Below are positions 4,603-18,020 of a stretch of 20,000 nucleotides of DNA, piece by piece. The stretch lies in IMG/VR virus record IMGVR_UViG_3300042383_001692; one strand, 5' to 3'. This stretch comes from an uncultured virus (IMG/VR IMGVR_UViG_3300042383_001692) (taxonomy: Duplodnaviria; Heunggongvirae; Uroviricota; Caudoviricetes). Each line of letters begins with the position of its first letter. The first letter of the stretch is position 1. A program made the position numbers and the translations under genes. The notes under the pieces were generated by a model. That model searched no databases. It was not told the DNA's origin and saw only the letters and a program-made list of their open reading frames with translations.

Positions 4603-4661
4603 AGGTGTATTGTCTCCTTGTTTTGCCTGCAGAAAAACGGGCCTCTTTCGAGGCCCTCCAA

Positions 4662-4991
4662 TCATTCTTCCTTGCCGCCCTGTCCACTCAAAAACGACCA
4701 GCGATCCACGATGATTTCCAAAGTGGCCGTGGCATTTCCGTCTTTTGCGATGTAGGCGTTGAGATTTCCGTTCTTGTGGCTCACGCGGCCAGAGAACGAA
4801 ATCCCGCGTCCCTTCTGCAAATACTGATTGGCGACTTCAGCGGACTTGCCGAAAATCGTCAGGCGCAGCCAGATCACTTCATCTTTTCCTTCCGGCGAAC
4901 GAGCGCGGAAATTGGTGATGGCGGTGCCCTTTTCGTTGTACTTCATCTCGGGCTCGGTGATGAGGTATGCGTCTCCATTCACGGTAATCAT
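4662..4991 (-). CDS. ssb: single-stranded DNA-binding protein (OB fold) without an acidic C-terminal tail
   Basis: EPEMKYNEKGTAITNFR...WLRLTIFGKSAEVANQYLQKGRGISFSGR...LEIIVDRWSFL. AGGAGA SD. Confidence 0.9.
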   Translation of the reverse strand: MITVNGDAYLITEPEMKYNEKGTAITNFRARSPEGKDEVIWLRLTIFGKSAEVANQYLQKGRGISFSGRVSHKNGNLNAYIAKDGNATATLEIIVDRWSFLSGQGGKEE

Positions 4992-5004
4992 TGTGTGTTT
5001 TCTC

Positions 5005-6354
5005 CTAATACTTTCTAAACGTTCTCTTGTAAAACGTCGACTGAATTCCGTTTTCAAGATTGTATAAGCTGCGATACATTTCGATGTTTGCAGCCTTCAA
5101 CAACTGATCCACAAATTCAAACATTCCAGACGATTGGGACTCTCCCATGCCTGTCACGTTGCCGTCGCTGATCCAGATCTTTCGACCTTTCTGCTGCGAC
5201 AGCCACAGAAGAGCAGGGCCGTCGATCACATTGCTGTATCCGACGTCCATGCGCATCTTTTCGATCTGTTCCGCGCCGGCGTATTTCCCATTCTTTCCAA
5301 GAATGTATAAGCTTCCGCGATTGATGCTGCCCGAGTATCCAGCCACGATAGACGCCGGCTGCTTTTCCAGGATCTGAATCACATCCTTTTCTTCGAAACT
5401 CATGCTGCCCGAGCAGTCGATCAGCACGGCCATCGGCGGAATCGAGCGATCCTTCAGGCCCCACACCTTCATGTCGGTGATAGCGCGGTGCATATAGCGC
5501 AGTGAGCCCATATACTTGGGCTTGTAAGCCTGCTTCCAATTGCGCATCATGGAGTTTTCCAGAGGCATTTCCCGAATGTCCATGTCGCCCCAAATGCAGT
5601 CTTCCGCAACTGGAAAATCGTATTCCTCGACATCTTCAATCAACTGCTTTTGATTTTCCAAAGACCGCTTTGCTTCATTGACGCGCAGAATTAAATTTTT
5701 TGCGTATTCCGAAAAGGTTTTTTCGTTAAAAAGACTGCTTTGCCTTCGAATTGTTTCTTTGCAGTAAAACACTAGGTCGTACAAAGCGCGGTTGATGTCG
5801 TGGCCGTAGGGATGCTTGGTCAAAACCCCGGCAAGATCCCCGACCATCTTCTCCATTTTCTTGCACTCTGCTCGCGTTTCCTTGTTTCTGCTGTAAACCT
5901 CGTCGTGCGCCCACGATCCGTAATACACGCCAAGCGTCTGAAGCAGATAGCTTGCCTGCGATCCAATTTCCATCTTGCTGAACTTTTCCAGGAATTTCTT
6001 TTTGGGAATCAGATCGTGCTCAAACGGAAGGTGGCGCGAGCTTTTACCAATAAACGCGTTGACCGCCGCGTCCATGCATGCCTGAATCAGGTGGTCATCT
6101 GCGCCTTCGTTTTTCATTTCGGTGATGAACGAAAGCGGCAGAATGTTTCTTTCCGTCATGGCGACATGTCCGTATTCATGCGCCTTCAACGAGCCGTAAT
6201 TTTTCTGCGTGATCATCTTGCCGTCGACTTCCGGAAGATGAATCACCCCCTGGTCTTTAGGACTCAGGGGGATTTCCGTCATGGCGCTCCGACCCGATCC
6301 CGAAACAATCGAGAACGAGCCGGAGTGCAGGGTGTTTGCAACGGTCTTTTTCAT
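5005..6354 (-). CDS. VWA-domain protein with an N-terminal HEXXH motif (MoxR partner)
   Basis: HEYGH putative zincin motif and MIDAS-like LIDCSGSM. Directly downstream of a MoxR AAA gene. Confidence 0.8.
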   Translation of the reverse strand: MKKTVANTLHSGSFSIVSGSGRSAMTEIPLSPKDQGVIHLPEVDGKMITQKNYGSLKAHEYGHVAMTERNILPLSFITEMKNEGADDHLIQACMDAAVNAFIGKSSRHLPFEHDLIPKKKFLEKFSKMEIGSQASYLLQTLGVYYGSWAHDEVYSRNKETRAECKKMEKMVGDLAGVLTKHPYGHDINRALYDLVFYCKETIRRQSSLFNEKTFSEYAKNLILRVNEAKRSLENQKQLIEDVEEYDFPVAEDCIWGDMDIREMPLENSMMRNWKQAYKPKYMGSLRYMHRAITDMKVWGLKDRSIPPMAVLIDCSGSMSFEEKDVIQILEKQPASIVAGYSGSINRGSLYILGKNGKYAGAEQIEKMRMDVGYSNVIDGPALLWLSQQKGRKIWISDGNVTGMGESQSSGMFEFVDQLLKAANIEMYRSLYNLENGIQSTFYKRTFRKY

Positions 6355-6356
6355 AA

Positions 6357-7088
6357 TTACTTTGAGCTCAAATGGCAGGCAAGCGCCACTTCGCTGACAA
6401 TGTCGGGAGACACATGTCCCCACACCGCCTGCGCCGCCGCTTCTTGCCCAATGGTTTCGGACAAACGCACAAACGCAAACGCTTCGCGTGACGTGATTGT
6501 CGGCTTCTTGTTGCCTTCACCGTAACTTCGCTTCACCATGTCACCGAGACCTGGCCTCCAGGAGTTCAGCGACTGAATGATGTTCGGATGCGGCGTAGTT
6601 ACTTTCAGACGCGCCTCAAACCGGTCCTGCAGCGCCTCCGGCAGCTTGCTGAACGGCGAATTGCTCGTAGCGATGATGCGCAGATCCGCATGCCGCTCCA
6701 CCGTTTCCCCCGTCATCAGCGTGATTTTCGCCGACTCCCGGCTGTCCAGGATCGACAGCAGAAAATCCAGCACCGCGTCCGATGCTCGCCCCAGCTCGTT
6801 CAGCACGAGGATTCCGCCGCTGCGGAAAGCCAGCATGATCGGGCCGTCGCGCCACACCCAGGCGCCGCTTTCAGTCGGGATGTAGGTGCCCTGATATTCC
6901 TGCACGGACGAATCCGGGTTAAACGTGATCTGATAAACAAAAAGCTTCTCTCCGTTCTTTCCGTTCAGACCGGCGTAGGTCTTGCCGAGGCCGGGAGCGC
7001 CCTCGATAAACGTGGTGAACGCATTGCGCACGCACATGTTCACAAGACTCCACTGCTCGACGTCGTTGCTCCAGTTCATAGTAGTCAT
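6357..7088 (-). CDS. MoxR/CbbQ/CobS-like AAA+ ATPase
   Basis: Walker A GAPGLGKT, WVWRDGPI, Walker B variant ILVLNE, RIIATSN and LPEALQDRF. AGGAGA SD. Confidence 0.9.
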   Translation of the reverse strand: MTTMNWSNDVEQWSLVNMCVRNAFTTFIEGAPGLGKTYAGLNGKNGEKLFVYQITFNPDSSVQEYQGTYIPTESGAWVWRDGPIMLAFRSGGILVLNELGRASDAVLDFLLSILDSRESAKITLMTGETVERHADLRIIATSNSPFSKLPEALQDRFEARLKVTTPHPNIIQSLNSWRPGLGDMVKRSYGEGNKKPTITSREAFAFVRLSETIGQEAAAQAVWGHVSPDIVSEVALACHLSSK

Positions 7089-7126
7089 AGGTTCTCCTTA
7101 TGCTTGGAGGGGTTCCATATCCCCCG

Positions 7127-7145
7127 CTCATGCGGCCGTCAGGCC
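7127..7145 (-). promoter_or_regulatory. TGAC-loop hairpin motif, copy upstream of the AAA/VWA operon
   Basis: GGCC-TGAC-GGCC-GCATGAG, one of 11 copies in the window. Confidence 0.7.
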
Positions 7146-7172
7146 AAAACTTCTCGAGTTTTCCAGCAAATC

Positions 7173-7442
7173 TCAAATTCCGACTTCTTTGCGCGCAGCT
7201 TCCATTTTTTCCCGGTTGTATACGTCAAACTTTTGCAGCCAGCTCCACGCGTACTTGTATCCCGGGGAATCGCTTTCTTCAGCCTTCACTTTTTCAATTT
7301 CCGAAAGCGAAACGCTTTCGTAAATTTCCATGAAATGGCGCATCATTTCAGGGTTTTCCTTGTAAGAAACAGTCAAATAGCAAATTGCCTTAAGGCGATT
7401 GCTGATTTTTCTCATCGACTTCCATTTCTGTTTTTCTTCCAT
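7173..7442 (-). CDS. hypothetical protein (~89 aa)
   Basis: ATG 7442 (MEEKQKWKS) preceded by AGGTGG. Confidence 0.6.
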   Translation of the reverse strand: MEEKQKWKSMRKISNRLKAICYLTVSYKENPEMMRHFMEIYESVSLSEIEKVKAEESDSPGYKYAWSWLQKFDVYNREKMEAARKEVGI

Positions 7443-7770
7443 GTATAACCACCTTTGCGTTTTTAAATAAACCAAACACTTTGGCGAGTTCAATGCGTTC
7501 GAGATTGGAAAGACCTGCAAAGTTTTCAGGAATTGCAATATCTATTCCTTCTCTTTGTGCGTCTCTAAACCTATCTTCACAGACAAGTTCATGTGGAAGA
7601 CGCAAAGCGGATGCTCGAAGTTTTGCACGCCCCGTCAACGAGACTTTTGTGCCAAATCTGATGCGAGCGGGACACGCTGCAGCTCCTATATACGGAATCT
7701 TTCCAGAAGCCATAGTTCCGCTGCCGGAAATTCCATCTCCTGAATCCGGCGAATATGCGGTAATTGACAT
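7390..7770 (-). CDS. 3D-domain (cell wall lytic transglycosylase-like) protein
   Basis: ITAYS...TMASGK...AACPARIRFGTKV...CEDR...IDI fits the 3D-domain pattern. Start chosen right after the stop of the upstream ORF; it could extend further upstream. Confidence 0.75.
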   Translation of the reverse strand: MSITAYSPDSGDGISGSGTMASGKIPYIGAAACPARIRFGTKVSLTGRAKLRASALRLPHELVCEDRFRDAQREGIDIAIPENFAGLSNLERIELAKVFGLFKNAKVVIHGRKTEMEVDEKNQQSP

Positions 7771-7777
7771 GAAATAT

Positions 7778-8095
7778 TCACGAAAAAGAATGCTCTTTTC
7801 TGAGAATTTCCACGATTTTGCAGAACTCTCCGCTTCGAAATTCAGCAACGCATTTTTTCCATGAGATGGAAATGGTATTGTGAAAAACCAGAAAATCGTC
7901 AGGATTTTCCAGAAGACGAAACGGAAGGGCTTCCATTGACTCTGAAATTTGAACAATTTGTTTGAGGCATGCACGTTTGCACGGGGAGTAAAGAGACTTG
8001 ATTCCATACTCCCGGGTAGAACGAGAGTAAACGAATAGCAGGACGGGAATTCCGTTCTGTTCTGCTGTGGACCATTGAATCAAATGCTCTTGCAT
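7778..8095 (-). CDS. hypothetical protein (~105 aa)
   Basis: ATG start; ends 7 nt before the chosen 3D gene start. Confidence 0.5.
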   Translation of the reverse strand: MQEHLIQWSTAEQNGIPVLLFVYSRSTREYGIKSLYSPCKRACLKQIVQISESMEALPFRLLENPDDFLVFHNTISISWKKCVAEFRSGEFCKIVEILRKEHSFS

Positions 8096-8212
8096 TAACT
8101 AGGATTGTAAAGTCCTGTTCAGTTTTGCAGACAAAAACACCCTTGCAAAACTTCCATGTTTTTGTAGAATAAAAACATTCGGTTTTGGTGTTGTTCTCCT
8201 CTTGGGATCTCC

Positions 8213-8252
8213 GGAGACCCCCGCATTCGGCAATGCGGGGGTTCTCTTTTTT
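8213..8252 (+). terminator. strong GC hairpin with a T-tract on the plus strand (may also protect the 3' end of the minus-strand mRNA)
   Basis: GAGACCCCCGCATT-CGGC-AATGCGGGGGTTCTC-TTTTT, directly after the stop of ORF 8252..8641. Confidence 0.6.
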
Positions 8253-8641
8253 CAGCGATATACGCCCATTTTGAGAAGCGGATATCTTGGGTGATGGATC
8301 CATCCGTCTTCGGAGATTTGAATTGCGGAATTTTCCATGTTTGCCGCTGCAGGGTTGAAATATGCATGAACGTAAATCCACGCATGGTCAATTTTTGCGT
8401 AGATTACAAACACGCATTTTTCAGCTCCTGTTTGCAGCTGAGCGAGGATTTCCTGCTTGCCTATTCTGTGCTTGGGCTTGGCCTTCACTTGCTCCGCATA
8501 GAGATTTTTGCGGAGATTTTCCAGGAATTCTCGACGTGGAACTTTCTTGTCGCCTAGCCACCCGTTGTCGTGCAACTGGGTGGCTAGATCGAACAAATCT
8601 CTGATTACATCCGTGGGAGCGAGCTTATCTTCCCACGGCAT
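8252..8641 (-). CDS. hypothetical protein (129 aa)
   Basis: GGAGG SD and ATG start; operon packing. Confidence 0.7.
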   Translation of the reverse strand: MPWEDKLAPTDVIRDLFDLATQLHDNGWLGDKKVPRREFLENLRKNLYAEQVKAKPKHRIGKQEILAQLQTGAEKCVFVIYAKIDHAWIYVHAYFNPAAANMENSAIQISEDGWIHHPRYPLLKMGVYR

Positions 8642-9053
8642 TTATTTCCTCCGCACTCAAATGCTTGATTAAACCCTGCATTACTGTGTCAACCAAAACA
8701 ACACGAATAGGCTTTTTCATGGCCAGCATTGTTTTGATCATGTGAGTAGTGCCCGGACTGCTGCCGTCATAAAACACAACGGCGGCATCTGCATATTCTG
8801 CCATGCGCTCATTTCGACGCATGCCCGCAGAACGTCCTTCTTCATCCCACTTTGCAGGCATCAAACAAATGCGGTATCCATGCTTCAACGCATACGCTCG
8901 ACCAAGGGTGTCTGGTCCCTGCGCTCCTCCGGATATCACTTCAATTCTGCATTCATTCTTTTTGTAAACAAGAAGATTATTCACAACCTCTTCTAGTTTG
9001 TCGTAATTGCAGAAAGACCGGCTTCCTGCAATTACAAGTCGAAACGTGTTCAT
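8625..9053 (-). CDS. YspA-like SLOG family protein (DUF2493)
   Basis: LVIAGSRSF...VISGGAQGPDTLG...PAKWDEEGRSAGMRRNERMAEYADAAVVFYDGSSPGT. ATGA overlap at 9050-9053. Confidence 0.9.
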   Translation of the reverse strand: MNTFRLVIAGSRSFCNYDKLEEVVNNLLVYKKNECRIEVISGGAQGPDTLGRAYALKHGYRICLMPAKWDEEGRSAGMRRNERMAEYADAAVVFYDGSSPGTTHMIKTMLAMKKPIRVVLVDTVMQGLIKHLSAEEINAVGR

Positions 9054-9319
9054 TTGTTCCTGCTCCATGCAACCAGCGGCGTGTTGAATAGATTCACACC
9101 GTTGGCCAGCATCTGTTCTGCATCCTTGACGTCGTCTTCAGAAAAAACCCAGTAGGACATGATCGCTCCATCCCACGGATCGTTCGTATACACGAGCGTC
9201 ATCCCGAGATTACTGGCGTCTTTCTGGTCAAGAGCGCTGTAATCGACCATGACCGCCTTGTTTTGCGATTCTGCAATTTTGATCAATTCAAGCACGATGT
9301 TCTCCTTGGCTGTCTTCAC
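9050..9319 (-). CDS. hypothetical protein (~89 aa)
   Basis: Tightly packed minus-strand ORF. Confidence 0.6.
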   Translation of the reverse strand: MKTAKENIVLELIKIAESQNKAVMVDYSALDQKDASNLGMTLVYTNDPWDGAIMSYWVFSEDDVKDAEQMLANGVNLFNTPLVAWSRNK

Positions 9320-9563
9320 ACTTCTGACAGGACAGAGTTCCTGGTCCCATCAGATACATGATTCCGTTTTTGTCTTTGACATAGAAATACTCTTTGACGG
9401 GAGTATTTGTTTCAAAAACCACAAACGGCTGCTGATCCGGATTGATTCCCATCCTAATGATGGTGTTCAGGTCGGCAACAATAAATTTGCTGCCGACCGA
9501 AAGCGTGGACAAAATGGTGTTATTCACAGTAAAGAGTGTATCTTCGCTCGTCCGAAGACACAA
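9288..9563 (-). CDS. hypothetical protein (~91 aa)
   Basis: Tightly packed minus-strand ORF; start uncertain. Confidence 0.5.
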   Translation of the reverse strand: MCLRTSEDTLFTVNNTILSTLSVGSKFIVADLNTIIRMGINPDQQPFVVFETNTPVKEYFYVKDKNGIMYLMGPGTLSCQKCEDSQGEHRA

Positions 9564-9771
9564 TTACCCTGTAGGAAGAAGAGTTGTCGCAAAACTGCGA
9601 CACGACAGAAACGTTGTCCTTGTTTTCCTTTTCCTGAAAGAGGCAGGAAAACATTTCGTTGCTGACTCCTCCATACCGCGTGCAGGCGCGGCCAAACAGA
9701 CTGCTTCTTTCCATCACGGTCCCTAGGATCATTGACGCAAAAATCACGATGGCTACTGCGATCTTTTTCAT
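9520..9771 (-). CDS. small protein with an N-terminal signal/TM segment
   Basis: MKKIAVAIVIFASMILG; GGAG SD. Confidence 0.6.
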   Translation of the reverse strand: MKKIAVAIVIFASMILGTVMERSSLFGRACTRYGGVSNEMFSCLFQEKENKDNVSVVSQFCDNSSSYRVIVSSDERRYTLYCE

Positions 9772-9786
9772 TTTTGACTCCAAAAC

Positions 9787-9820
9787 TCCGGGTTTTGTTG
9801 ACGCGGACCCGGAAACCGCG
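9787..9820 (-). ncRNA. H-type pseudoknot motif after a stop codon
   Basis: CGCGG-UU-UCCGGGU-CCGCG-UCAACAAA-ACCCGGA. Confidence 0.7.
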
Positions 9821-9825
9821 AGAAA

Positions 9826-10281
9826 CTAGAACGGAATGTCCTTGTCGAGAACGTCTTCGCGGGCAACAGAAGTCTCTTCCTTCTTCTGCTCTTCGCCCCA
9901 CTTGGCCAGCTCAAAGACCATCGGCTTGCTGTCAGGATCGTTGCGATCGCAGCGAATCCACTTGCCGGTGTCGTCCTGCTTTGCCGTAAACGGATTCAGC
10001 CACAGGCTGCCGCTCTTGTCGGGATTCAGCAGCCCGTAGACGGACGCCTTGGCCTTGAGGCCGCGGACTTCGCCGGTCTCCTCGTTCTCGATGCGCTCCC
10101 ACTTGAAGTTGTCTGCAAACCCGATCGGAACGGTAAGAGCCGCACTGAATTTCAGTTTGAACGTCACCACGCCGTCGGCCTGCGTGTAGGCCTGCCACGA
10201 CTGCGCGCGCAGGACCTCGCGCTTGCCGTCCTTGGTGCGAACATTGTTTCGATACAGCGTCACATTGTGTCGATTGCTCAT
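9826..10281 (-). CDS. beta-rich protein with an SSB-like acidic C-terminal tail (possible second SSB)
   Basis: AGGAGG SD; ends ...EDVLDKDIPF. Confidence 0.75.
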   Translation of the reverse strand: MSNRHNVTLYRNNVRTKDGKREVLRAQSWQAYTQADGVVTFKLKFSAALTVPIGFADNFKWERIENEETGEVRGLKAKASVYGLLNPDKSGSLWLNPFTAKQDDTGKWIRCDRNDPDSKPMVFELAKWGEEQKKEETSVAREDVLDKDIPF

Positions 10282-10337
10282 AAAAAACTACCTCCTGAAC
10301 TCTAATCACCATATGAACGAGCACGCGCCCGTTCACT

Positions 10338-10357
10338 CCTATACGCGCGTCAGCGCG
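10338..10357 (-). promoter_or_regulatory. TGAC-loop hairpin motif abutting a hammerhead
   Basis: CGCGC-TGAC-GCGCG-TATAGGAG (variant tail). Confidence 0.7.
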
Positions 10358-10421
10358 GTCTCCTCAGCGCAGGCATCACCTGCGGATCATCGGGGAGAAG
10401 AATCTCCCCTAGATTTCGACC
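10357..10421 (-). ncRNA. hammerhead ribozyme, type II (HH-A)
   Basis: GGUC-GAAA-UC UA GGGGAGA UUCU UCUCCCC GAU GA-UC^-CGCAGG UGAUG CCUGCG-CUGAGGA-GACC. Predicted cleavage after AUC, between 10385 and 10384. Confidence 0.92.
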
Positions 10422-10466
10422 TGGTTAATGGCGTCGGCATGCTTGCGCACACCGACGCCGACAAAA

Positions 10467-10658
10467 CTACCGCCAGCGCAGCTCTTCGAGGTCGTCCGAC
10501 CCCCAGAAACTGAGCTGACCACTGTTCCCCCCGAGCTTCTCGATGATCTTCCGTGCGAGTTCTTCGGCGTCCCAGTCGTAGTTCACGACCGTGACGTCGA
10601 TTTCCTCTTCGTTGAAGCTCCAATCAAACGACACTCGCGGATCCTTCTTCTTGCCCAT
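10467..10658 (-). CDS. small acidic hypothetical protein (63 aa)
   Basis: AGGAGG SD with ATG. Confidence 0.7.
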   Translation of the reverse strand: MGKKKDPRVSFDWSFNEEEIDVTVVNYDWDAEELARKIIEKLGGNSGQLSFWGSDDLEELRWR

Positions 10659-10670
10659 GTTTTTTGCCTC

Positions 10671-10880
10671 CTACCTGCAACTGCGCGTCCATCCATGCTC
10701 CGTGCGCGCATACACGGTTTCCTGGTGCATGGTTCTCAAATTACGAACGACGATTTCGCTGATTCGATCGTCATGCTGATAAAACGAAAGAAGGGCTCGA
10801 TACTCCTCGAGCCCTTCTGAACTGACGGTCACCACGTTCAGGCGACCGTCAGTTTGGAAGCGAAGTTCAATGACGTTCAT
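10671..10880 (-). CDS. hypothetical protein (69 aa)
   Basis: ATG 10880 (MNVIELRF); its GAGGAG SD is supplied by the hairpin motif. Confidence 0.7.
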   Translation of the reverse strand: MNVIELRFQTDGRLNVVTVSSEGLEEYRALLSFYQHDDRISEIVVRNLRTMHQETVYARTEHGWTRSCR

Positions 10881-10887
10881 TTTTCTC

Positions 10888-10907
10888 CTCATACGGCCGT
10901 CAGGCCG
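10888..10907 (-). promoter_or_regulatory. TGAC-loop hairpin motif (the loop TGA is the hicB stop codon)
   Basis: CGGCC-TGAC-GGCCG-TATGAG-GAG. Confidence 0.75.
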
Positions 10908-11118
10908 CGGGAACTGGAACCTCCATTCCCGCATCCAATGCCACTTCGATCCACAAGCGCATGGCATCCTCGATCATGGCGCCGACTTCCTCGAAGGTAT
11001 CCGCCTCAGTCGCGCAACCCGGCAATTCGCGAACGCGCGCGAACCACACCGGATGATCTCCGGAGAGATCCTGGGTCACTTCGATGGTGTAGGGAAGGTT
11101 CATATAGTGGTCTACCAT
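10900..11118 (-). CDS. hicB: HicB-like antitoxin, N-terminal domain only, orphan
   Basis: YMNLPYTIEV...WFARVRELPGCATEADTFEEVGAMIEDAMRLWIEVALDAGMEVPVP is a typical HicB. GAGGA SD. Confidence 0.88.
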   Translation of the reverse strand: MVDHYMNLPYTIEVTQDLSGDHPVWFARVRELPGCATEADTFEEVGAMIEDAMRLWIEVALDAGMEVPVPAA

Positions 11119-11130
11119 TTTTATCCTCAA

Positions 11131-11322
11131 CTAATCGCCGAGTTCCGCAATCTTGCGATCCACCAGAGCGCGGAAACTCTGGTTGTCGTAGCGGATTTCT
11201 CCGCTTTCGAGCGCCTTGTCGAACGCCTGAATGGCGCCCTTGAGGCCTTCGACGCCGGCGTTCACATCGCCGGCACGCGCAACTTCCATTGCTCGTTCGA
11301 CCATTCTTACAAACTTGTGCAT
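11131..11322 (-). CDS. small helical hypothetical protein (63 aa)
   Basis: GGAG SD with ATG; not HicA-like. Confidence 0.65.
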   Translation of the reverse strand: MHKFVRMVERAMEVARAGDVNAGVEGLKGAIQAFDKALESGEIRYDNQSFRALVDRKIAELGD

Positions 11323-11429
11323 TTTTTTACTCCAAAAAAAGACTCCGGTTTTGATAGAGAACCGGCAAACTCCGGGGTTTATGGCTATGCCCCCCTAACC
11401 GCACAGCGGGTTAAAACGGATAGAAGCAC

Positions 11430-11473
11430 AACCCTGTCAGGGAATCGAACCCTGATAAATCGCCAGACAGGGC
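11430..11473 (-). ncRNA. minimal tRNA-like structure (acceptor stem + T-arm)
   Basis: GCCCUGU-CUGGCGAUUUAU-CAGGG-UUCGAUU-CCCUG-ACAGGGU-U, with exact 7-bp + 5-bp geometry. Confidence 0.7.
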
Positions 11474-11519
11474 AATCTTCGTCCTACCGCATAGCTTGCA
11501 ATTCAAGTGAGGATTGCTC

Positions 11520-11539
11520 CTCATGCGACCGTCAGGTCG
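11520..11539 (-). promoter_or_regulatory. TGAC-loop hairpin motif
   Basis: CGACC-TGAC-GGTCG-CATGAG-GAG. Confidence 0.75.
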
Positions 11540-11660
11540 AATGCGCCTTGGCTCCGGAGATTCGACGTGGTCATCTCCAAACCAGAGTTGCGGCGCTTCT
11601 GTTGTCATCCGCGAGGGAAATAGTCCCGCATTTCTGCTGGTCCACTCTATTTCCATTACT

Positions 11661-11725
11661 GGTCTCGTCAGCACCCGCATTACGGGTGGATCATCGGGGA
11701 GCTTTCGCTCCCCTAGATTTCGACC
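11661..11725 (-). ncRNA. hammerhead ribozyme, type II (HH-B)
   Basis: GGUC-GAAA-UC UA GGGGAGC GAAA GCUCCCC GAU GA-UC^-CACCCG UAAUG CGGGUG-CUGACGA-GACC. Predicted cleavage between 11689 and 11688. Confidence 0.93.
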
Positions 11726-11734
11726 TTATGGGGA

Positions 11735-12031
11735 TCAGAACGGGATTTCCCCGTCCTGATCCTTCTCCTTTCCCTGCCAATACTTCTCGATTTCGGAATC
11801 GAGAAGGTTGGCAAGGAACATTGCCACGCGGAGTTCGTCGTCGCCCTGCTCGCGCGCAAGACGCACGAGCTCTTCGGTGATCTTGCAATCACCGAAATTC
11901 TCTAAATTGGTGACAAACTGATCGAGTTCGTCACTGATTTGGAGATATCCTCCAATCACGTTTGCGTCGTGCCACGCCGCCGTCAATTGAATGACGGCGA
12001 ACATGACTGCTTGGAAATTGTTGTCGTTCAT
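11735..12031 (-). CDS. hypothetical protein (98 aa) with an SSB-like tail
   Basis: ATG 12031 (MNDNNFQ) after GAGGAG; ends KDQDGEIPF. Confidence 0.75.
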   Translation of the reverse strand: MNDNNFQAVMFAVIQLTAAWHDANVIGGYLQISDELDQFVTNLENFGDCKITEELVRLAREQGDDELRVAMFLANLLDSEIEKYWQGKEKDQDGEIPF

Positions 12032-12038
12032 GATTCTC

Positions 12039-12058
12039 CTCATACGCCCGTCAGGGCG
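12039..12058 (-). promoter_or_regulatory. TGAC-loop hairpin motif
   Basis: CGCCC-TGAC-GGGCG-TATGAG-GAG. Confidence 0.75.
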
Positions 12059-12080
12059 TTTTTGCCAACAAAACCCCACT

Positions 12081-12141
12081 GGTCTCATCAGTGTGCGCAT
12101 CACGCACAGACCCCTTGCATCGCACGCAAGGGATTTCGACC
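12081..12141 (-). ncRNA. hammerhead ribozyme, type II (HH-C)
   Basis: GGUC-GAAA-UCCCUUGC GUGCGAU GCAAGGGG-UC^-UGUGCG UGAUG CGCACA-CUGAUGA-GACC. Predicted cleavage after GUC, between 12109 and 12108. Confidence 0.95.
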
Positions 12142-12150
12142 TGTCTCGGC

Positions 12151-12495
12151 CTAGGAAATGACTTCCCAGACCGAGAATTCAAACGACGCAGAAGAAATTT
12201 CTGCGTCACTGTATTCCGCAACGCCTTCGCGTCGCGGCAAACCGCGAACCGACATGACCACGAGCTTGTCGTTCAGCCCAAGCTTGACCATCGGCGCCTT
12301 CGCTGGCACTTCGACCATCAGGCCGAAGCGCCTCTGCATTGCGATGATCGTTGCGCCATGCGAGGGGTTCAACGCCGGGATGACCCCAGCGTTGACCAGT
12401 TCGCGGACGGCCTCGACCGTGACGATCTTGCGGGTGACCGTCACGTCACCCGCAAACATGCCGTCGGCGACGGCAAAGCTAAAGTAAGTGCTCAT
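12151..12495 (-). CDS. probable DUF1874 / AcrIII-1-like ring nuclease (STIV B116-like), divergent
   Basis: 114 aa. YFSFAVADGMF / ALNPSHGAT (His46) / VKLGLNDKLVV / LPRREGVAEYSDAEI / FEFSVWEV follow the order and spacing of the B116-family blocks as recalled (NAFS.NM / AIGH..T / V.L..GD..(I/L)V / RL.EG.VL...EI / FY.V). GGAGG SD. Confidence 0.68.
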   Translation of the reverse strand: MSTYFSFAVADGMFAGDVTVTRKIVTVEAVRELVNAGVIPALNPSHGATIIAMQRRFGLMVEVPAKAPMVKLGLNDKLVVMSVRGLPRREGVAEYSDAEISSASFEFSVWEVIS

Positions 12496-12533
12496 TTTGC
12501 CTCCAAAAGAACTACTGCACACAAGACTCTACT

Positions 12534-12592
12534 GGTCTCATCAGCACACGCATCACGTGTGTATACCCCTTAGCTAGAGGGGTATTTCGACC
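12534..12592 (-). ncRNA. hammerhead ribozyme, type II (HH-D)
   Basis: GGUC-GAAA-UACCCCU CUAGCUA AGGGGUA-UA^-CACACG UGAUG CGUGUG-CUGAUGA-GACC. Predicted cleavage after AUA, between 12562 and 12561. Confidence 0.95.
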
Positions 12593-12594
12593 TG

Positions 12595-12940
12595 GACTCA
12601 CTACTGATTAGCTAGATCAATAGTGAGTCACAGCACAAGATTTCGGCTTGTGCACACCGAACGCGCACGACCGGTCCACCGGCATCTCATTGCGCGCTCC
12701 ACTACATTTCAACGCATTGCTTGTATTTGCAACTACAAACAACGCATTGAAATGCGCTCTTGCTTCCTGGTGCAAGAGAACCATCTCTCAACCAACACTG
12801 ACTCGCGGCCTCGCAAAGCAATCCCGAACGGATTGAGTCTCTGCTTTGCGACCGGGTCTCGCGGGCGACCCTGAACTGCCCGAGCACTTGCTCAGACGAT
12901 CCGCGAAACCGGATGAGAGCTACGACGCAGCCCTCAGCCA
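12595..12940 (-). ncRNA. large structured non-coding RNA of unknown class (~350 nt)
   Basis: About ten consecutive hairpins, including a 21-bp stem (12705-12754) whose plus-strand C/A mismatches are all G-U pairs on the minus strand. No convincing ORF with an SD. Confidence 0.75.
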
Positions 12941-12945
12941 AAACT

Positions 12946-13021
12946 CTCATACGCACGTCAGTGCTTTCGCACGGACACTGCGTATGCGGAACTCAAGAGC
13001 TCCTCATACGCACGTCAGTGC
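12946..13021 (-). promoter_or_regulatory. two tandem TGAC-loop hairpin motifs (12946-12964, 13003-13021)
   Basis: Both read GCAC-TGAC-GTGC-GTATGAG and lie immediately upstream of the ncRNA. Confidence 0.75.
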
Positions 13022-13044
13022 TTTACACTAACTGAGAACTCACT

Positions 13045-13105
13045 GGTCTCATCAGTGCACGCTTTACGTGCAGATCTCCCGCATCGCACGCGGGAGATTT
13101 CGACC
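13045..13105 (-). ncRNA. hammerhead ribozyme, type II (HH-E)
   Basis: GGUC-GAAA-UCUCCCGC GUGCGAU GCGGGAGA-UC^-UGCACG UAAAG CGUGCA-CUGAUGA-GACC. Predicted cleavage between 13073 and 13072. The first G is shared with the upstream TAG stop. Confidence 0.95.
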
Positions 13106-13302
13106 TACAAAGAAACGATGATCAGGCCGAGGTTGCCTCCGCAGACGAACTCGGTCTTGAGCCCTCCGAGCTCAAAGAGGACTTGCTGGGCAAGGGCGTC
13201 TTCGCCCTCGCGCAGATGCCACACGACATTCCCTCGATCTCCGTAGTCAAGGGCGTCCATCACGCCCTCGACCGTCTGCCACTTCACCTTGTTCTCGTTC
13301 AT
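13105..13302 (-). CDS. hypothetical protein (65 aa)
   Basis: AAGGAG SD; ATG 13302 (MNENKVKW). Confidence 0.7.
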   Translation of the reverse strand: MNENKVKWQTVEGVMDALDYGDRGNVVWHLREGEDALAQQVLFELGGLKTEFVCGGNLGLIIVSL

Positions 13303-13369
13303 AACACTCCTTCGGGAAAGCTCTGCGGCCTCCCATATGCGAACAATTAAGAGAGCACACAAGCTTCTC

Positions 13370-13447
13370 CTCATACGCACGTCAGTGCTTTCGCACTACA
13401 CATGCGTATCAGGAGGAAGCAAAATGCTCTCATACGCCCGTCAGGGC
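13370..13447 (-). promoter_or_regulatory. two TGAC-loop hairpin motifs (13370-13388, 13429-13447)
   Basis: GCAC-TGAC-GTGC-GTATGAG and GCCC-TGAC-GGGC-GTATGAG. Confidence 0.75.
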
Positions 13448-13551
13448 AGAGTCTCCACTCGAGACTCGCTCTGTTATGTATCACCTCCCTAACCGTTGCT
13501 GTTAGGCGAAGGAAGGGAGGTGAATACGACATCCTGTGAACCGAAAGGGTA

Positions 13552-14079
13552 TCACCGGATGGGAACCCACTCGAGGGTGACATTGTCACGCTCGGTGAGT
13601 TCGGCCGAGTTTAGGGCGAGAACCCGGCAAGCCAGCTGGGTGGCCTTCTGCTGCCAGAGCTGGACCTCCTCGTAGAAGAAGGTCTGGCGTCTGGTGAGCG
13701 GCTTGCCCTGGACCAGGCGCCGCTCGATGTCGCGCTGGGTGGACTCCCGGAGGCGCGAACCATCCATGGGGCGCCACGCCGCGATCTGGCCGGCGTAGGC
13801 CCATTCTCGCATTTTGGGGTCCGGCTTGACCCCGTGGCGCTTCGCGTATTCTGCGAAGGCCTGCGATACCGCCTCAGGGCGGATGAATATATCCCTGCGC
13901 ACATCGTCCTTGCGCACAGGAATATTCACGAACCGACCGTGGTTGACCACGGCGGCTCGGTGCCCGGGAGGAGGTTTGCCGAAGTTCTCCTCCGTTGCGG
14001 AAGGCTTGGCCGCGCTCGGCACGGCTGCCCTCCGGGTCGTGGTGGGCGCTCCACGACCAAAAGCTGGTTTCTCGTTCAT
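13552..14079 (-). CDS. basic hypothetical protein (~175 aa)
   Basis: Start taken at ATG 14079 (MNEKPAFG). The upstream extension in the ORF track runs through hairpins and a T-tract. Confidence 0.7.
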   Translation of the reverse strand: MNEKPAFGRGAPTTTRRAAVPSAAKPSATEENFGKPPPGHRAAVVNHGRFVNIPVRKDDVRRDIFIRPEAVSQAFAEYAKRHGVKPDPKMREWAYAGQIAAWRPMDGSRLRESTQRDIERRLVQGKPLTRRQTFFYEEVQLWQQKATQLACRVLALNSAELTERDNVTLEWVPIR

Positions 14080-14176
14080 GCTCGCCCCCTTCGGGCGCTC
14101 GGCCCCTAGGGGGGCCTCGCCCCCTTCGGGGGCTTCGCCCCATGAAATAAAAAGCCTCGCATTGCTGCGAAGCTTA

Positions 14177-14249
14177 CTCATACGCGCGTCAGCGCGCAGA
14201 AGAGAAAGACGGGATTCCCCGTTCTTCTCCTCATACGCGCGTCAGCGCG
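14177..14249 (-). promoter_or_regulatory. two TGAC-loop hairpin motifs (14177-14196, 14230-14249)
   Basis: Both read CGCGC-TGAC-GCGCG-TATGAG. They are the first copies downstream of the polymerase gene. Confidence 0.75.
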
Positions 14250-14395
14250 CATAGGGAGACACTCAGTTGCGGCTACCCTTCCGAGTCGTCGCGCTGCTGG
14301 GCATCCAGCCGCGCCGGTCCGGACATCCGAAGGCGGACGCCCGAGTAAATCGTTTGCCCGTACGGATGCGCCTGAGCAAGGGCAGGCATTCGTAG

Positions 14396-14430
14396 AAAAA
14401 TAAAAAAGAGGGCGGTCATAGACCACCCTC
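14396..14430 (-). terminator. intrinsic terminator of the WYL-polymerase operon
   Basis: GAGGGTGGTC-TAT-GACCGCCCTC-TTTTTTATTTTT. Confidence 0.8.
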
Positions 14431-14475
14431 CACTGGAGCAGGAGATGATTCCAGTCACCTCCTGCCCGCTACACA

Positions 14476-17277
14476 CTACATCACGTCCGTTTCGATCACG
14501 CCGTCATCGGCGCTGGCGTAGTCGAAACCGCCGTCATCCGCCCACTCCGGCTCCGGAGTGTCTCCGTCCAGCGAAATCTCGAAGAACTCGGCCATCACTC
14601 TCCCCGTAAAGGTGATTTCCACGCTCTTCATCCCGGGAACGGTAGCGAGTTTGACGTGGTACATTCCCGTCGGAACAACCGCGCCAACCATGCCATGCGT
14701 CTGTCCGTCGCCCACGCGAACAGACAGCGGATACTTTGGCGTTTTTGCGCTTGTATCAACGACTTCGACAACCGTATACACGGTGTCGCTGTCCATATAC
14801 TTAGCGCGGAATTCCATGCCGCCCATGATCTTGCCGATCATGCCGGCCCCCACTGCGCGTCTCTCGGCAATGCTGTCCTTTCGGGCAATCAGCATCCGCG
14901 CGACTACTTCCGGAAGTGCAAACTTCATTGCAAATCCGGCGTTGTCGCCGCGAGAGAACGCAGCCCACAGCGCGCTGGCGGCAGATTCCAGCCACGCCGT
15001 GTTCTCGTTCTCCTTGCCAAGATTCATCTCGACCGCCTTGTCGCGCCAAACCTTTCGATAGCCTTCGAAAAGCTCAGCGCGCAGCATGTCGGCCATTTCC
15101 AACGCGATCTTCTTTGCCTTAAGATCGTTGGCAATGTCGCCCATGCGCTTATACAAGCGGTCGACCGCCCAGTTTGCCCACTTAAAGCCCTCTCCCGGGA
15201 TCTCCTCAATCCACCCGGCAAAGAACTTGTTGTCCAGCGTGGACAACTGGATGAGTGGCACCTCATCCTCGTGGGCGCGGATAAACGCCGCCAGCGGCAT
15301 CAGCTCCTCGTCAGGAGCGTCCACCTGACTGAAGAACCTGCTGGGCAGGATCGGCTGTCCTGGCTCCACCACCGGCCGGCCGTTAGCGTCTCCAAAGAAG
15401 CGCGCGGTCTCCACCGCTGCGTCCTCCGCCGTGCCCGCAAAGAGGGTGAACGGCTTAATGTTCTTCCTCTTCTGGAGCTGGCGGTAAGCGTGCATGGAAA
15501 GAGTAATGCCATACTCCTCCTGCGCCTCCTTGGAGAGTTTGCGGACAAGCTTCATGTCCGCAGTGGCAGCCTTCTTGACGCTGTCCACCGCCTTCTGAAG
15601 CTCGACCCGCAACGCGTCGATTCTTTCGGTCGCCAAAGCCTTGGCGTGCGCCACCATGCGCTCTATGACGACCCATTTCTGATTGACGTAGTCAATCAGG
15701 CCGATGCCGGCGGCCATTGACTGCGCAATCATCTTGCTACGATTGGTCGGCGGAACCGCCTTCTGCCGCAGCTTCTCTTCGCTAATCGGCAGTCCCTCGA
15801 CCGTCTTACGCATCTCGACCACGACCTCGTCAGGTCGCAGGATGGCAAAGGCGTCGCCATCGAAATCGAGAGCCGCACGATTCATCGTGCGTTCGTTGAC
15901 CCACGCCTCGTACCACCGCACACGTGGGTCAGCGTGTACGATGACTGCGACCATTTCATTCCGGTGGGCAAACGGGTACCGGATGGCCACAGTCTTAACG
16001 CCGTCTCGGCCTGTCTTTCCAAACAGGTGCTGGAACACCTTTGGATTGACAGCGACGACGTTGTCGCCCAAGCTTCTGTTGCAGACCGCGCGGAATCTCC
16101 ACGCGTAGATTCCCAGACCTGCCAGGATCTGGTAACCCACAGTGGCGACCCACTCGGTCAGCGCGGCAACCATCATTTTGCTGCGCATCAGCCGCGTGTC
16201 GCCGATAGCGACGCACACAGCTGCAAACAGCCTGATGATGTCGAACTGCTGGAGGTTTCCCTCCTCGTCTCGCAGCGACGTGCCCCGGCCGGCCAGCCAG
16301 CGCACGTCGCTGAGACGCTCTCGCAGTTCGCCCAGCTTTGCCGATACGAGGTCGTGCGCCTTGTTCACGACTTCGCTCGACATCCACTGGGTCACCTGTG
16401 GACCGATCAGCATGGGGCCGGCCAGGTCCTCGTCACCATTGACGATGCCGAACCCCATCATCACCTCGTGCACGCCGTCCGGAAGCACAATGCCCTTGTT
16501 GTGCTTGAGCGTGCCCCTGGGCATTACCAGGTCCACCCCGTCCGGCAGCCGAGCCGGAATCAGGGTGCCTTTGCCCAGGATCCACTTGGACGAGTCCTCA
16601 TTGTCCAAGTGGAGGATCGCGCGGAACTGCGGGTCGTTCTCAAACACGACCTTGTGCTGCGCAGCCCACGCGCGATCAATCAACCCCTGGCCGTCGCCGA
16701 TGCGGGTAAAGCCAGGATCGTCATCCTTGCATACCAGCACCCGGGCGGTCACGTGAAAGTAACCACCCCGCAGGGGCGTATGCAGCGCTCCAGGGCGCAC
16801 GGCGTCTCCCGCGTCCGGGAACATCGCCTCCATGCGCTTGGCCCAGTAAAAGTCCACCACCGGGAGCACTGCATTATTTGACTTGGCGGCCTGCGTCATG
16901 TACCGCAGCCAGCCGCATTTGCGCTCATCCGAGGGGCGGACCGGCCAGTCCACCTCAGGGATGTCGATGCCCCTGTCCTGAATGATGTCGAGGGCGAGAG
17001 TGGAGATCTCTTCCTCATCGGCATCAATGAGACTTGGGGCCAACTGTACGCCCGCGATGAGAGCGCCTTCCTCGCGGGCAATGCATGAAGCGTAGTCCCG
17101 GCGCACCCACCGGTATCCGCTTGGCTTGAGCGGACCCGGCTTGGCGTTGGACAAGCCCATGCGCTTGAGAACTGGCCAGTTGGTCACCAGCTCTCCGTTG
17201 CGTCCCTTCATCACCGGGACGACCACGAATACGTCGTGGATCGTCAAGGTGACGATAGGGACTTCGAACATCTTCAT
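14476..17277 (-). CDS. single-subunit two-barrel (DPBB) RNA polymerase, YonO / cellular RdRP-like (~933 aa)
   Basis: Ordered motifs GDGQGLI, PQFR...GKG, MPRGTLK, IRYP, catalytic DFDGD (15853-15867), IGLI and QKAVDSVKK match the conserved blocks of QDE-1-type RdRPs and phage YonO. GGAGG upstream of ATG 17277. Confidence 0.88.
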   Translation of the reverse strand: MKMFEVPIVTLTIHDVFVVVPVMKGRNGELVTNWPVLKRMGLSNAKPGPLKPSGYRWVRRDYASCIAREEGALIAGVQLAPSLIDADEEEISTLALDIIQDRGIDIPEVDWPVRPSDERKCGWLRYMTQAAKSNNAVLPVVDFYWAKRMEAMFPDAGDAVRPGALHTPLRGGYFHVTARVLVCKDDDPGFTRIGDGQGLIDRAWAAQHKVVFENDPQFRAILHLDNEDSSKWILGKGTLIPARLPDGVDLVMPRGTLKHNKGIVLPDGVHEVMMGFGIVNGDEDLAGPMLIGPQVTQWMSSEVVNKAHDLVSAKLGELRERLSDVRWLAGRGTSLRDEEGNLQQFDIIRLFAAVCVAIGDTRLMRSKMMVAALTEWVATVGYQILAGLGIYAWRFRAVCNRSLGDNVVAVNPKVFQHLFGKTGRDGVKTVAIRYPFAHRNEMVAVIVHADPRVRWYEAWVNERTMNRAALDFDGDAFAILRPDEVVVEMRKTVEGLPISEEKLRQKAVPPTNRSKMIAQSMAAGIGLIDYVNQKWVVIERMVAHAKALATERIDALRVELQKAVDSVKKAATADMKLVRKLSKEAQEEYGITLSMHAYRQLQKRKNIKPFTLFAGTAEDAAVETARFFGDANGRPVVEPGQPILPSRFFSQVDAPDEELMPLAAFIRAHEDEVPLIQLSTLDNKFFAGWIEEIPGEGFKWANWAVDRLYKRMGDIANDLKAKKIALEMADMLRAELFEGYRKVWRDKAVEMNLGKENENTAWLESAASALWAAFSRGDNAGFAMKFALPEVVARMLIARKDSIAERRAVGAGMIGKIMGGMEFRAKYMDSDTVYTVVEVVDTSAKTPKYPLSVRVGDGQTHGMVGAVVPTGMYHVKLATVPGMKSVEITFTGRVMAEFFEISLDGDTPEPEWADDGGFDYASADDGVIETDVM

Positions 17278-17293
17278 TTGCCTGCCGGACCTC

Positions 17294-17800
17294 CTAAGCC
17301 GGCTTCCATTGAAGAATTCGCGCCACCACGAACGTGCGATCTTCATTGCGCAGGTGGCAGCGCGCAATGAGACCGAGTTCAGACCAGGACAGAGGGGTGA
17401 CGACCCGCTCTGTCACCTCGCCTCGAATCCGCCCGTCATAGCGGATCCAGAGCTTGGCTCCGGTCTTCATGGCCTCGCTCGCGGCCATGGTGAACTCAAC
17501 GTTGTCCGTGTGGACCACCTGCGAGCGCAGGTTGGCGGGGCAGTCCGGTCCGTACACCGGCACGCCCTGCGCGGCCATCCAGGCTGCGACCTTGGCCGGG
17601 TTGGCAGCCCGGTCATAGTCGCGGCGTGAATCGCCACGCATCCACACGCGGGTGCCGTTCGTCGGGAACTCCACGGCCAGCACCCCGAGCGCCGTGAGCT
17701 CCTGCCACGTCTTCAACCGACTAGACGCGTCGGTTGGGCTGAACAGTGGCTCGTTCAGCCGAAGAATTGCCCGCAGTTTTGACGGCAAAACAACCGTCAT
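17294..17800 (-). CDS. WYL-domain protein (168 aa)
   Basis: C-terminal AMKTGAKLWIRY...ERVVTP...LIARCHLRNEDRTFVVARI is a WYL domain. AAGGAGG SD before ATG 17800. Confidence 0.85.
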   Translation of the reverse strand: MTVVLPSKLRAILRLNEPLFSPTDASSRLKTWQELTALGVLAVEFPTNGTRVWMRGDSRRDYDRAANPAKVAAWMAAQGVPVYGPDCPANLRSQVVHTDNVEFTMAASEAMKTGAKLWIRYDGRIRGEVTERVVTPLSWSELGLIARCHLRNEDRTFVVARILQWKPA

Positions 17801-18020
17801 AGGGCACCTCCTTTCAACTACGGTTTTCGTGAGTCGCAGGTTCCGCTCCTGCCTAGCCGCCATTGCGGCACCGTTCGTTCGCCAGAACGGGCTTACATCT
17901 ATGCCGTCCTGGGTTGTTTCGAAACCCGAAGCTCCGCCAAAACTTTGCCGAAGAAAACGCAAAGAGGGGAGAGGGGAATGCCCCGCGCAGGCTCGTCAGC
18001 CTTGCAGGACACATGGCATG

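Follow-up and report, generated by a model that had tools for sequence, protein, structure and literature searches.

Gene order downstream of the polymerase gene

The window analyzed here is a stretch of 20,000 nucleotides (nt) from an uncultured virus of the Caudoviricetes (IMG/VR record IMGVR_UViG_3300042383_001692). It contains the gene of a single-chain RNA polymerase of 933 amino acids (aa) and, downstream of this gene, eleven copies of a 19-nt element with the sequence GNNC-TGAC-GN'N'C-GYATGAG, in which a 12-nt hairpin is followed by a fixed tail of 7 nt. The copies of this motif (m1 to m11, counted from the polymerase gene) are interleaved with five type II hammerhead ribozymes (HH1 to HH5), which are located between small open reading frames (ORFs). 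The convincing genes of the window are all encoded on the minus strand, as are the motif copies and the hammerheads, and the features given below lie on this strand unless stated otherwise. The motif had been reported in an earlier note on this DNA, which regarded it as a candidate hairpin promoter of the phage polymerase; the hammerheads are absent from that note.

Counted from the polymerase gene, the region opens with an intrinsic terminator detected in a terminator scan (11-bp stem and T run, 14397..14431), which closes the polymerase operon. It is followed by a spacer of 147 nt, by m1 (14230..14248), which is the first conserved element after this terminator, by a hairpin-forming spacer of 34 nt (14196–14229), and by m2 (14177..14195). 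Directly after m2, within 2 nt, the same type of scan detected a terminator-like hairpin with a T run (14152..14175). The next part comprises a 175-aa gene, m3 (13429..13447), m4 (13370..13388), a 65-aa gene, HH1, m5 (13003..13021; 23 nt after HH1), and m6 (12946..12964). Beyond a structured stretch of approximately 350 nt without a good ORF follow HH2, a 114-aa gene, HH3, m7 (12039..12057; 23 nt after HH3 and 7 nt before the ATG at 12031), a 98-aa gene, and HH4. They are followed by m8 (11520..11538), a tRNA-like element, a 63-aa gene, a HicB-like gene, m9 (10888..10906), two small genes, HH5, and m10 (10338..10356), which abuts HH5. The loop TGA of m9 is the stop codon of the HicB-like ORF, and the copy ends 7 nt before the ATG at 10880. 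The series closes with a gene run that includes a block of lower GC content, m11 (7127..7145), and, 38 nt further on, the gene of an AAA_5 ATPase. In its cassette form, the recurring unit consists of motif, gene, and hammerhead. Three tandem pairs of copies (m1/m2, m3/m4, and m5/m6) are spaced 53, 59, and 57 nt, respectively, and the first copy of each pair precedes no gene. The stretch is 66.5% coding; ten of the eleven copies are wholly intergenic, and the remaining one shares 7 nt with the end of an ORF.

Conservation and covariation of the hairpin motif

A search with the pattern GNNCTGACGNNCGYATGAG, allowing for up to two mismatches, yielded 11 matches in the window, all of them on the minus (coding) strand. 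In 200 shuffled sequences the same search gave a mean of 0.12 and a maximum of 3 matches, and none of the shuffles reached 11. Ten copies are exact, and m10 at 10338 shows two mismatches (tail GTATAGG); the tails of m8 and m11 read GCATGAG. A scan for any 4-bp Watson–Crick stem enclosing the loop TGAC returned 11 sites on the minus strand, all identical to the motif copies, and none on the plus strand. The tail sequence GYATGAG occurs 11 times on the minus strand, ten times within the copies and once as an orphan without hairpin (5405), and a single time on the plus strand (3296). Neither the pattern nor the stem-loop scan detected a copy upstream of the polymerase gene (14249–20000) or in 1–7126. 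The eleven equally oriented copies that the earlier note had placed at 7127 to 14230, their fixed tail except at 10338, and their restriction to the DNA downstream of the polymerase gene were thus recovered. The positions given there are correct, too, but they denote the 3' ends of the copies, since the minus strand is the one on which the motif runs 5'→3'.

Conservation among the copies is confined to 19–21 nt and does not extend to the flanks; some copies are clear duplicates with common flanks (repeat families D2, D4, and D15, the last of which includes m4). In the alignment of the copies, GAGGAG follows the hairpin in 6 of 11 cases; the earlier note had described the tail as often running into a GAGGAG Shine–Dalgarno sequence. 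Wide and narrow Rfam scans returned nothing on the motif; a 19-nt element is hardly able to reach the threshold.

The outer G–C pair and the loop-closing C–G pair of the stem are invariant in all 11 copies. The two inner pairs vary as CG, GC, and AU, and none of the 22 cells is unpaired, in accordance with the complementarity claimed before. The covariation score amounted to 0.467, compared with 0.145 ± 0.045 in shuffled alignments (0 of 500 shuffles reached 0.467), and pairing fell to 20–59% of the cells when the partner arm was slid out of register. Five distinct stems, the same as listed in the earlier note, were found: GCGC (m1, m2, and m10), GGCC (m9 and m11), GCCC (m3 and m7), GACC (m8), and GCAC (m4, m5, and m6). 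Because there are only five stem types among the 11 copies, they have to be counted as five independent witnesses and not as eleven. The covariation of the inner pairs indicates that the element functions as a single-strand hairpin. A fifth pair can form in eight copies and a sixth in seven, which is not clearly above chance; the selected stem therefore comprises 4 bp. Of the stem extension by G–U pairs noted earlier, the five wobble cells were seen, but the extra pairs do not stand out clearly from chance.

As RNA, the motif folds in all 11 copies and also in most longer contexts. A second, variable hairpin follows the tail in most copies, but such hairpins are not enriched over the background. 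When the copies were considered as 5' termini of would-be transcripts, a terminal hairpin was present in 5 of 11, compared with 30–48% of the control positions (p 0.22–0.67). In m4 and m6, an upstream GUGC-GAAA (GTGC-GAAA in the DNA) is able to compete for the 5' arm of the hairpin. The two copies m1 and m2 are predicted to pair together into one long hairpin; pairing between tandem copies as a general feature was rejected, since the differing stems of m3 and m4 make it impossible there. The motif was also considered as a terminator of the phage polymerase, which was discarded because it is located at gene starts and not at gene ends, and a primase site was rejected on reading the sequence.

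In m2, m4, m7, and m9 (A at 14181, 13374, 12043, and 10892, respectively), the ATG within the tail shares the reading frame of the following gene and is open to it, which corresponds to four of the six copies that stand directly before a gene; m11 is out of frame and m10 lacks the ATG. An in-frame motif ATG would fit mRNA 5' ends nearby, but as m7 and m9 are paralogous, this is suggestive only.

Hammerhead ribozymes between the motif copies

All five hammerheads fit a strict core pattern (CUGANGA...GAAA, A15.1–U16.1, H17, and three stems). Their layout is GGUC-GAAA-(stem III)-H-(stem I)-CUGANGA-GACC, with an open stem II of 4 bp (GGUC/GACC). HH1 (13045..13105) and HH3 (12081..12141), for which cuts are predicted after C 13073 and C 12109, respectively, matched RF02276 with 21.5 bits (full length) and 15.6 bits in narrow Rfam scans; both scores lie below the gathering score of 37. 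HH2 (12534..12592; H17 = A), HH4 (11661..11725; core CTGACGA), and HH5 (10357..10421; core CTGAGGA) were recognized by the core pattern, and their stems were parsed by hand; here, cuts are predicted after 12562, 11689, and 10385, respectively. The narrow scans took in HH1, HH3, and HH5 individually, and HH5 had no Rfam match at E ≤ 1. None of the five was reported in wide Rfam scans. A motif copy is found within 0–23 nt downstream of three of the five hammerheads.

In HH1 to HH4, a conserved tail ACCAGU(G/A) located behind stem II can pair with the last bases of stem I and with C3-U4-G5 (tail windows 13049–13040 in HH1, 12538–12529 in HH2, 12085–12076 in HH3, and 11665–11656 in HH4). HH1 and HH3 would pair as CACUG/CAGUG, HH2 and HH4 as UGCUG/CAGUA, so that the outer pair covaries from C–G to U–A. 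Such a tail hairpin would hide the catalytic core and could represent an off-state or a post-cleavage fold. The loop I pseudoknot known from other type II hammerheads is not evident here. The motif itself was also considered as a split or insertion-bearing hammerhead core (CUGA...UGAG) and rejected, as position 9 is not A and neither GAAA nor stem III follows.

The hammerhead array is of an already known kind. Hammerheads with the same GGUC/GACC stem II build were found in IMG/VR contigs at 124 loci at least, several of which carry 2–5 copies. Arrays of type II hammerheads that flank single genes, as they do here, have been reported from phages and were proposed to cut long transcripts to gene-length mRNAs (Perreault et al. 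2011; PMC3088659). In other phages, the ribosome site directly follows the type II ribozyme, whereas an additional hairpin motif is present in the window. Covarying hairpin families comparable to the motif (at least three copies and at least two stems) were sought de novo in about 350 other fetched loci, among them about 120 viral contigs with hammerheads, and none was found; the method recovers the motif in the window.

Among the motif copies, the only repeat family in the intervals is the hammerhead, and one further family (D13) lies inside 7127–14249. It consists of three tandem GC-rich units of 17–18 nt at 14141–14081, each of which forms a small hairpin (GGGGC-GAA-GCCCC and similar), and immediately precedes the ATG of the 175-aa gene. 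The stretch between m6 and HH2 (12945–12600), approximately 350 nt without a convincing ORF, contains a long near-perfect hairpin (12757–12694) and a 9-bp hairpin (~12630–12595) and may be a non-coding RNA released by HH2. At ~11473–11431, 47 nt downstream of m8, a tRNA-like minihelix with a 7-bp acceptor stem and a T arm with GGUUCGAUUCC gave a weak mascRNA-like Rfam match (18 bits); it may be a processing signal for RNase P/Z.

The phage RNA polymerase and the adjacent WYL protein

The polymerase gene (14476..17277) encodes a 933-aa protein with the metal-binding motif DxDGD in the form DFDGD (residues 471–475), whose aspartates D471, D473, and D475 are invariant in 31 sequences. The protein had no match in Pfam or PHROGs, including Pfam RdRP (PF05183), and sequence searches of the PDB gave nothing significant. 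A direct search returned only 11 homologues (45–95% identity; longest contigs 51 and 22 kb) in a set of 5.8 billion proteins and none in INPHARED phages, IMG/VR, or GTDB genomes, and a profile search of 1.84 billion cluster representatives yielded 28 relatives. When 22 of these were scanned, two showed similarity to Pfam RdRP, one above and one below the cutoff, and neighbors in the ESM Atlas carry the name RdRP. The structural model built from 31 sequences reached a predicted local distance difference test value (pLDDT) of 85.9 and a predicted template modeling score (pTM) of 0.80; a model from 11 sequences was poor (pLDDT 56) and was not used. With the former model, Foldseek matched QDE-1 (E 1.9e-13, template modeling score 0.45), plant RDR2, and, weakly, Pol II Rpb1. 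Matches to phage proteins comprised P32 gp64 (9.7e-09), P23-45 gp96, and gp66 of the crAss-like phage phi14:2 (6.6e-07); those from Thermus phages are the non-virion and virion polymerases of P23-45-like phages. Because of the DFDGD motif and the fold-model matches, the ORF is assigned to the single-chain two-barrel RNA polymerases of the QDE-1/YonO/phage gp64 kind. The YonO-like polymerase proposed in the earlier note is thereby corroborated. A T7-like polymerase was not recognized among the ORFs scanned.

Just upstream of the polymerase gene, protein family scans identified the gene of a 168-aa WYL-domain protein (17294..17800). The titles of published structures describe QDE-1-type enzymes as accepting single-stranded DNA templates, and WYL domains bind single-stranded DNA in several regulators. 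A role of the WYL protein as a helper of the polymerase is therefore conceivable.

Repeated cassettes of the upstream region

The genes upstream of the polymerase gene are preceded by a different repeated cassette, of which three good copies (near 19900, 19010, and 18610) and a partial one exist. These cassettes (19920–19815, 19030–18925, 18630–18524, and, partial, 18085–18020) are located ahead of each small gene. Besides an intrinsic terminator, they contain a double T-rich run (TTTTTATTTT..TTTTTATTTTTTT) and a ~45-nt conserved block with CCGTGTTTACGGATACAGCGCC at its end. Clear sigma-70 hexamers were not found in them, and the ~45-nt block is absent after the polymerase terminator. The upstream cassette is probably a unit of terminator and early promoter, comparable to the PeSLs of T4-type phages. 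These PeSLs resemble the elements of the window in that repeated regulatory elements flank small variable ORFs and serve as break points of modular shuffling. They differ from the motif in combining a host-type early promoter with a terminator stem-loop, which fits the early cassettes at 18000–19900 better, whereas the motif region uses a covarying 4-bp hairpin and hammerheads. Two promoter classes would be expected to show such an arrangement, with different repeat cassettes on either side of the polymerase gene.

Sigma-70-like sites are not enriched in the window (6, compared with 11.0 ± 3.5 in shuffles). The motif was compared with sigma-70, sigma-54, and extended −10 promoters as well, but neither the spacing nor the key bases fit.

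Rearrangements among relatives

DNA of the window was found in freshwater and lake metagenome runs of 12 studies, none of which is recorded as RNA. Contigs of four runs (X2, X4, X6, and X14) with at least 80% likeness were compared with the window, from which they show some 650 differences. In X6, the spacer between the terminator and m1 (14249–14395, 147 nt) is replaced by 177 unlike letters, but both the terminator and m1 persist, which makes the motif the first element to be conserved downstream. In X6 and X14, 57 nt are absent, corresponding to one unit of the m5/m6 pair (joint 12943→13001), and the HicB-like gene is missing, with the joint 17–22 nt upstream of m9. Another joint (12966→12078) is present in X2 and X4, where 17 other letters connect the 5' edge of m6 with the 3' terminus of an HH3-like ribozyme, so that the junction of ribozyme, spacer, and motif recurs in another gene order. 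Break points of strain rearrangements were observed at the 5' edges of motif copies at 12966, 13447, and 14248.

The motif combined with GAGGAG had no match in IMG/VR. A 14-base form, CTGACGNNCGTATGAG, gave 117 loci in metagenomes and 109 in IMG/VR, each with a single match; a complementary stem was present in 5 of the 117 metagenome loci, which is about the rate expected by chance and shows that this pattern is too weak. The motif was found in no other collection searched. It appears to be a phage-specific regulatory or promoter element in hairpin form.

A possible promoter of the phage polymerase

Two regulatory classes, a strong terminator, and a variable spacer followed by a conserved motif argue for a promoter class that would be read by the phage polymerase. 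We tentatively interpret the 19-nt element as the promoter, or the promoter core, of the phage's own two-barrel polymerase, acting as a DNA hairpin similar to that of phage N4; among the interpretations considered this is the most likely one, possible but not quite probable. According to this model, the host polymerase would transcribe the early genes and the polymerase gene from the other cassette and would halt at the terminator (14431–14397), after which the newly made phage polymerase would initiate at the hairpin elements. The 12-nt inverted repeat would be recognized as an extruded or melted single-strand hairpin, most likely of the template strand (c-GTCA-g loop), and the GYATGAG tail would serve as a single-stranded ruler and initiating region. 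The RNA would start in or beside ATGAG, approximately 11 nt from the center of the loop, as in N4. Each unit would comprise the motif, one or more genes, and often a hammerhead, which would cut read-through RNA at the end of the unit. The repeated motif and the ribozyme might double as break points for the shuffling of cassettes between strains.

The only promoters known to act as a single-strand hairpin are those of the N4 virion polymerase. In these, positions −17 to +1 are conserved, some stem positions are fixed and the free ones need only pair, a sheared G:A pair stabilizes the loop, and the distance to +1 is spanned by a single-stranded ruler (PMC4496689). The N4 sequence GCGGAGC and the general form GCGNNAGC (also GCGNAGC) are assigned to a "mini-hairpin" class (PMC13037366). 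The template strand of the motif reads C-GTCA-G in all 11 copies, as the earlier note had pointed out, and this sequence fits the GCGNNAGC class. Both the N4 promoters P1–P3 and the motif are elements of ~18–19 nt with a small GC-rich hairpin and a fixed single-stranded tail. The stem positions are in part fixed and in part free if paired, the template loop is, by its sequence, closed by C–G and bracketed by G...A (GGA/GAA in N4, GTCA here), and the probable start lies ~11 nt from the loop center. On the other hand, N4 has three promoters at one genome end with loops of 3 nt, whereas 11 copies with a 4-nt loop are present here. Transcription from N4-type promoters starts at a fixed distance from the hairpin and depends on supercoiling and SSB. 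The two-barrel polymerase shares its fold class with gp96 and gp64 of phage P23-45 and with YonO of SPbeta. For gp96 and gp64, two distinct short conserved promoter motifs, one per polymerase and located before early genes, have been described (10.1101/2022.12.01.518664). The promoter of YonO was left undefined in the 2017 YonO paper. Neither a later promoter definition for YonO-like enzymes nor hairpin promoters outside N4-like phages were found in the open-access literature.

Several observations weigh against a DNA-hairpin promoter. The N4 enzyme is a T7-like single-subunit virion polymerase, unrelated to the two-barrel protein encoded here, and its promoter stems comprise 5–7 bp compared with the selected stem of 4 bp. 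The word hairpin occurs 0 times in the P23-45 text (10.1101/2022.12.01.518664). According to the calculated energies, RNA forms the more stable hairpin (−4.9 to −12.2 kcal/mol, compared with −3.3 to −7.4 kcal/mol for DNA), and both DNA strands are alike, without an advantage of the template strand, in an energy model with which the extra stability of a G..A mini-hairpin loop is not computable. The optional pairs 5 and 6 include five G–U or U–G cells on the sense strand, which correspond to A–C mismatches on the template strand. The overlap of the tail with GAGGAG in 6 of 11 copies also suits a role in RNA or translation, and in m7 and m9 the tail lies only 7 nt ahead of the start codon. Neither the arrangement in three tandem pairs nor the presence of a terminator-like hairpin only 2 nt behind m2 is usual for a simple promoter. 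The whole neighborhood of the motif is rich in RNA processing, and in other phages hammerheads of the same build run straight into a Shine–Dalgarno sequence and ATG without room for a promoter; the order of ribozyme and promoter is therefore not general. Of the premises on which the promoter reading was based in the earlier note, those regarding the polymerase, the placement, the loop, and the size of the element hold; the hammerheads and the tRNA-like element had been overlooked, and they make a role in RNA a serious rival.

Such a role in RNA appears less likely than the promoter but is the strongest rival. The motif would be a hairpin in the 5' untranslated region, with a UGAC loop and a GYAUGAG tail, which a protein would bind or cut. 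This could be an endoribonuclease of the phage or the host or a protein acting on a translational operator; for the WYL protein, the candidate of the earlier note for an RNA operator, the observations argue neither way. Together with the hammerheads and the tRNA-like element, the motif would punctuate the transcripts into single-gene mRNAs and set their 5' ends, stability, or translation. The stable folding of all 11 copies as RNA, the overlap with GAGGAG, and the wobble pairs of the stem extension, which fit the sense strand only, suit this explanation. The competing GUGC-GAAA in m4 and m6 looks like an RNA switch, the in-frame and open AUG of four of the six gene-preceding copies suggests a nearby mRNA 5' end, and with five hammerheads and the tRNA-like minihelix in the same gaps, RNA processing is clearly at work. 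However, transcription of the region would in this case require a further promoter, and no conserved one follows the polymerase terminator. No gene directly follows the leading copy of a tandem pair, the comparison of 5'-terminal hairpins with control positions was negative, and no nuclease gene was recognized among the ORFs scanned. In three cases the motif lies 0–23 nt past a hammerhead, where two such close cuts would release only a scrap of RNA. We know of no class of stable RNA tetraloops that includes c-UGAC-g, whereas its complement fits, by sequence, a G..A loop of the DNA mini-hairpin type.

The joints at the edges of the motif in relatives (12966, 13447, and 14248), the lost tandem unit, and the variable HicB-like gene near m9 would also be explained if the motif were mainly a site of DNA recombination or a cassette boundary, that is, a single-strand hairpin recognized by a HUH-type enzyme or a recombinase, or simply a repeat favoring homologous exchange, with a secondary role in expression. 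We regard this as improbable: ordinary recombination yields such break points at any repeated element of 19–25 nt, the hammerheads likewise serve as break points (joint 12966→12078), and all copies are oriented with transcription, immediately ahead of genes. Moreover, neither a transposase nor a recombinase was recognized among 36 ORF translations scanned. Solitary CRISPR repeat units have been reported in phages (PMC10651486). The copies might accordingly mimic CRISPR repeats, the solitary ones as RNA anti-CRISPRs and the tandem pairs (53, 59, and 57 nt) as mini-arrays with one spacer, with a handle of 7–8 nt as in Cas6-processed repeats. In the succession of hairpin and tail and in the distances within the pairs, the copies do resemble repeat-spacer units, but mimicry requires one host repeat, whereas five stem types are present. 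The would-be spacers are themselves hairpins, two of which share sequence (family D15), no cas gene is located in the window, and the 19–21 conserved nt are shorter than the CRISPR repeats known to us, all of which renders this explanation very improbable. New ribozyme classes have been found beside hammerheads in phage-like DNA. A part of a new small self-cleaving ribozyme or a ribozyme regulator would fit the vicinity of the motif to the hammerheads and the variable second hairpin after the tail. With only 19 conserved nt, no conserved partner pairing, no Rfam ribozyme even in narrow scans, and no enrichment of the hairpins after the tail, there is hardly any likelihood for such a function.

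The promoters that are recognized by polymerases of the YonO kind, and whether these enzymes recognize them alone, were left open in the 2017 YonO paper. The window supplies a candidate of 19 nt that can be synthesized; its stem occurs naturally in five compensatory variants, and the gene of the enzyme lies beside it. With such a defined candidate beside the polymerase gene, a simple in vitro test is therefore possible. If the hairpin is the recognized form, DNA-hairpin promoters would be no curiosity of N4-like phages but a convergent solution for sigma-free polymerases. A doubtful extension of the promoter reading, given less weight than the promoter function itself, is that of a second, independently evolved class of DNA-hairpin promoters. 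This class would be characterized by a two-barrel polymerase, a 4-bp mini-hairpin, a 7-nt ruler, perhaps the aid of a WYL protein, hammerheads in place of terminators, and self-contained shuffling cassettes. The orderly combination of motif and hammerhead would provide a concrete case for the purpose of phage hammerhead arrays. If the motif acts in RNA instead, it would be a new small RNA signal in a ribozyme-rich region and still be of interest.

Further features of the window

The HicB-like antitoxin ORF upstream of m9 (11118–10900) belongs to PHROG 497 (E 4.9e-12); a HicA-like partner was not recognized among the ORFs scanned. The block at 7173–9800, which is devoid of motif copies, has a GC content of 44–49% compared with 55–61% around it. 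It contains a SLOG/YspA-like gene, a strong two-way terminator (8216–8243), and a sigma-70-like site, TTGTCT-17-TACAAT near 8140–8105, which was read by eye. The block is possibly an acquired module with its own host-type promoter. At 2702–2770, Rfam reported (45.4 bits) a second tRNA-like gene, whose anticodon region is shortened and for which ARAGORN made no call; it adjoins a tRNA-Arg(TCT) at 2247–2319, and a ThyX gene is located at 1472–702.

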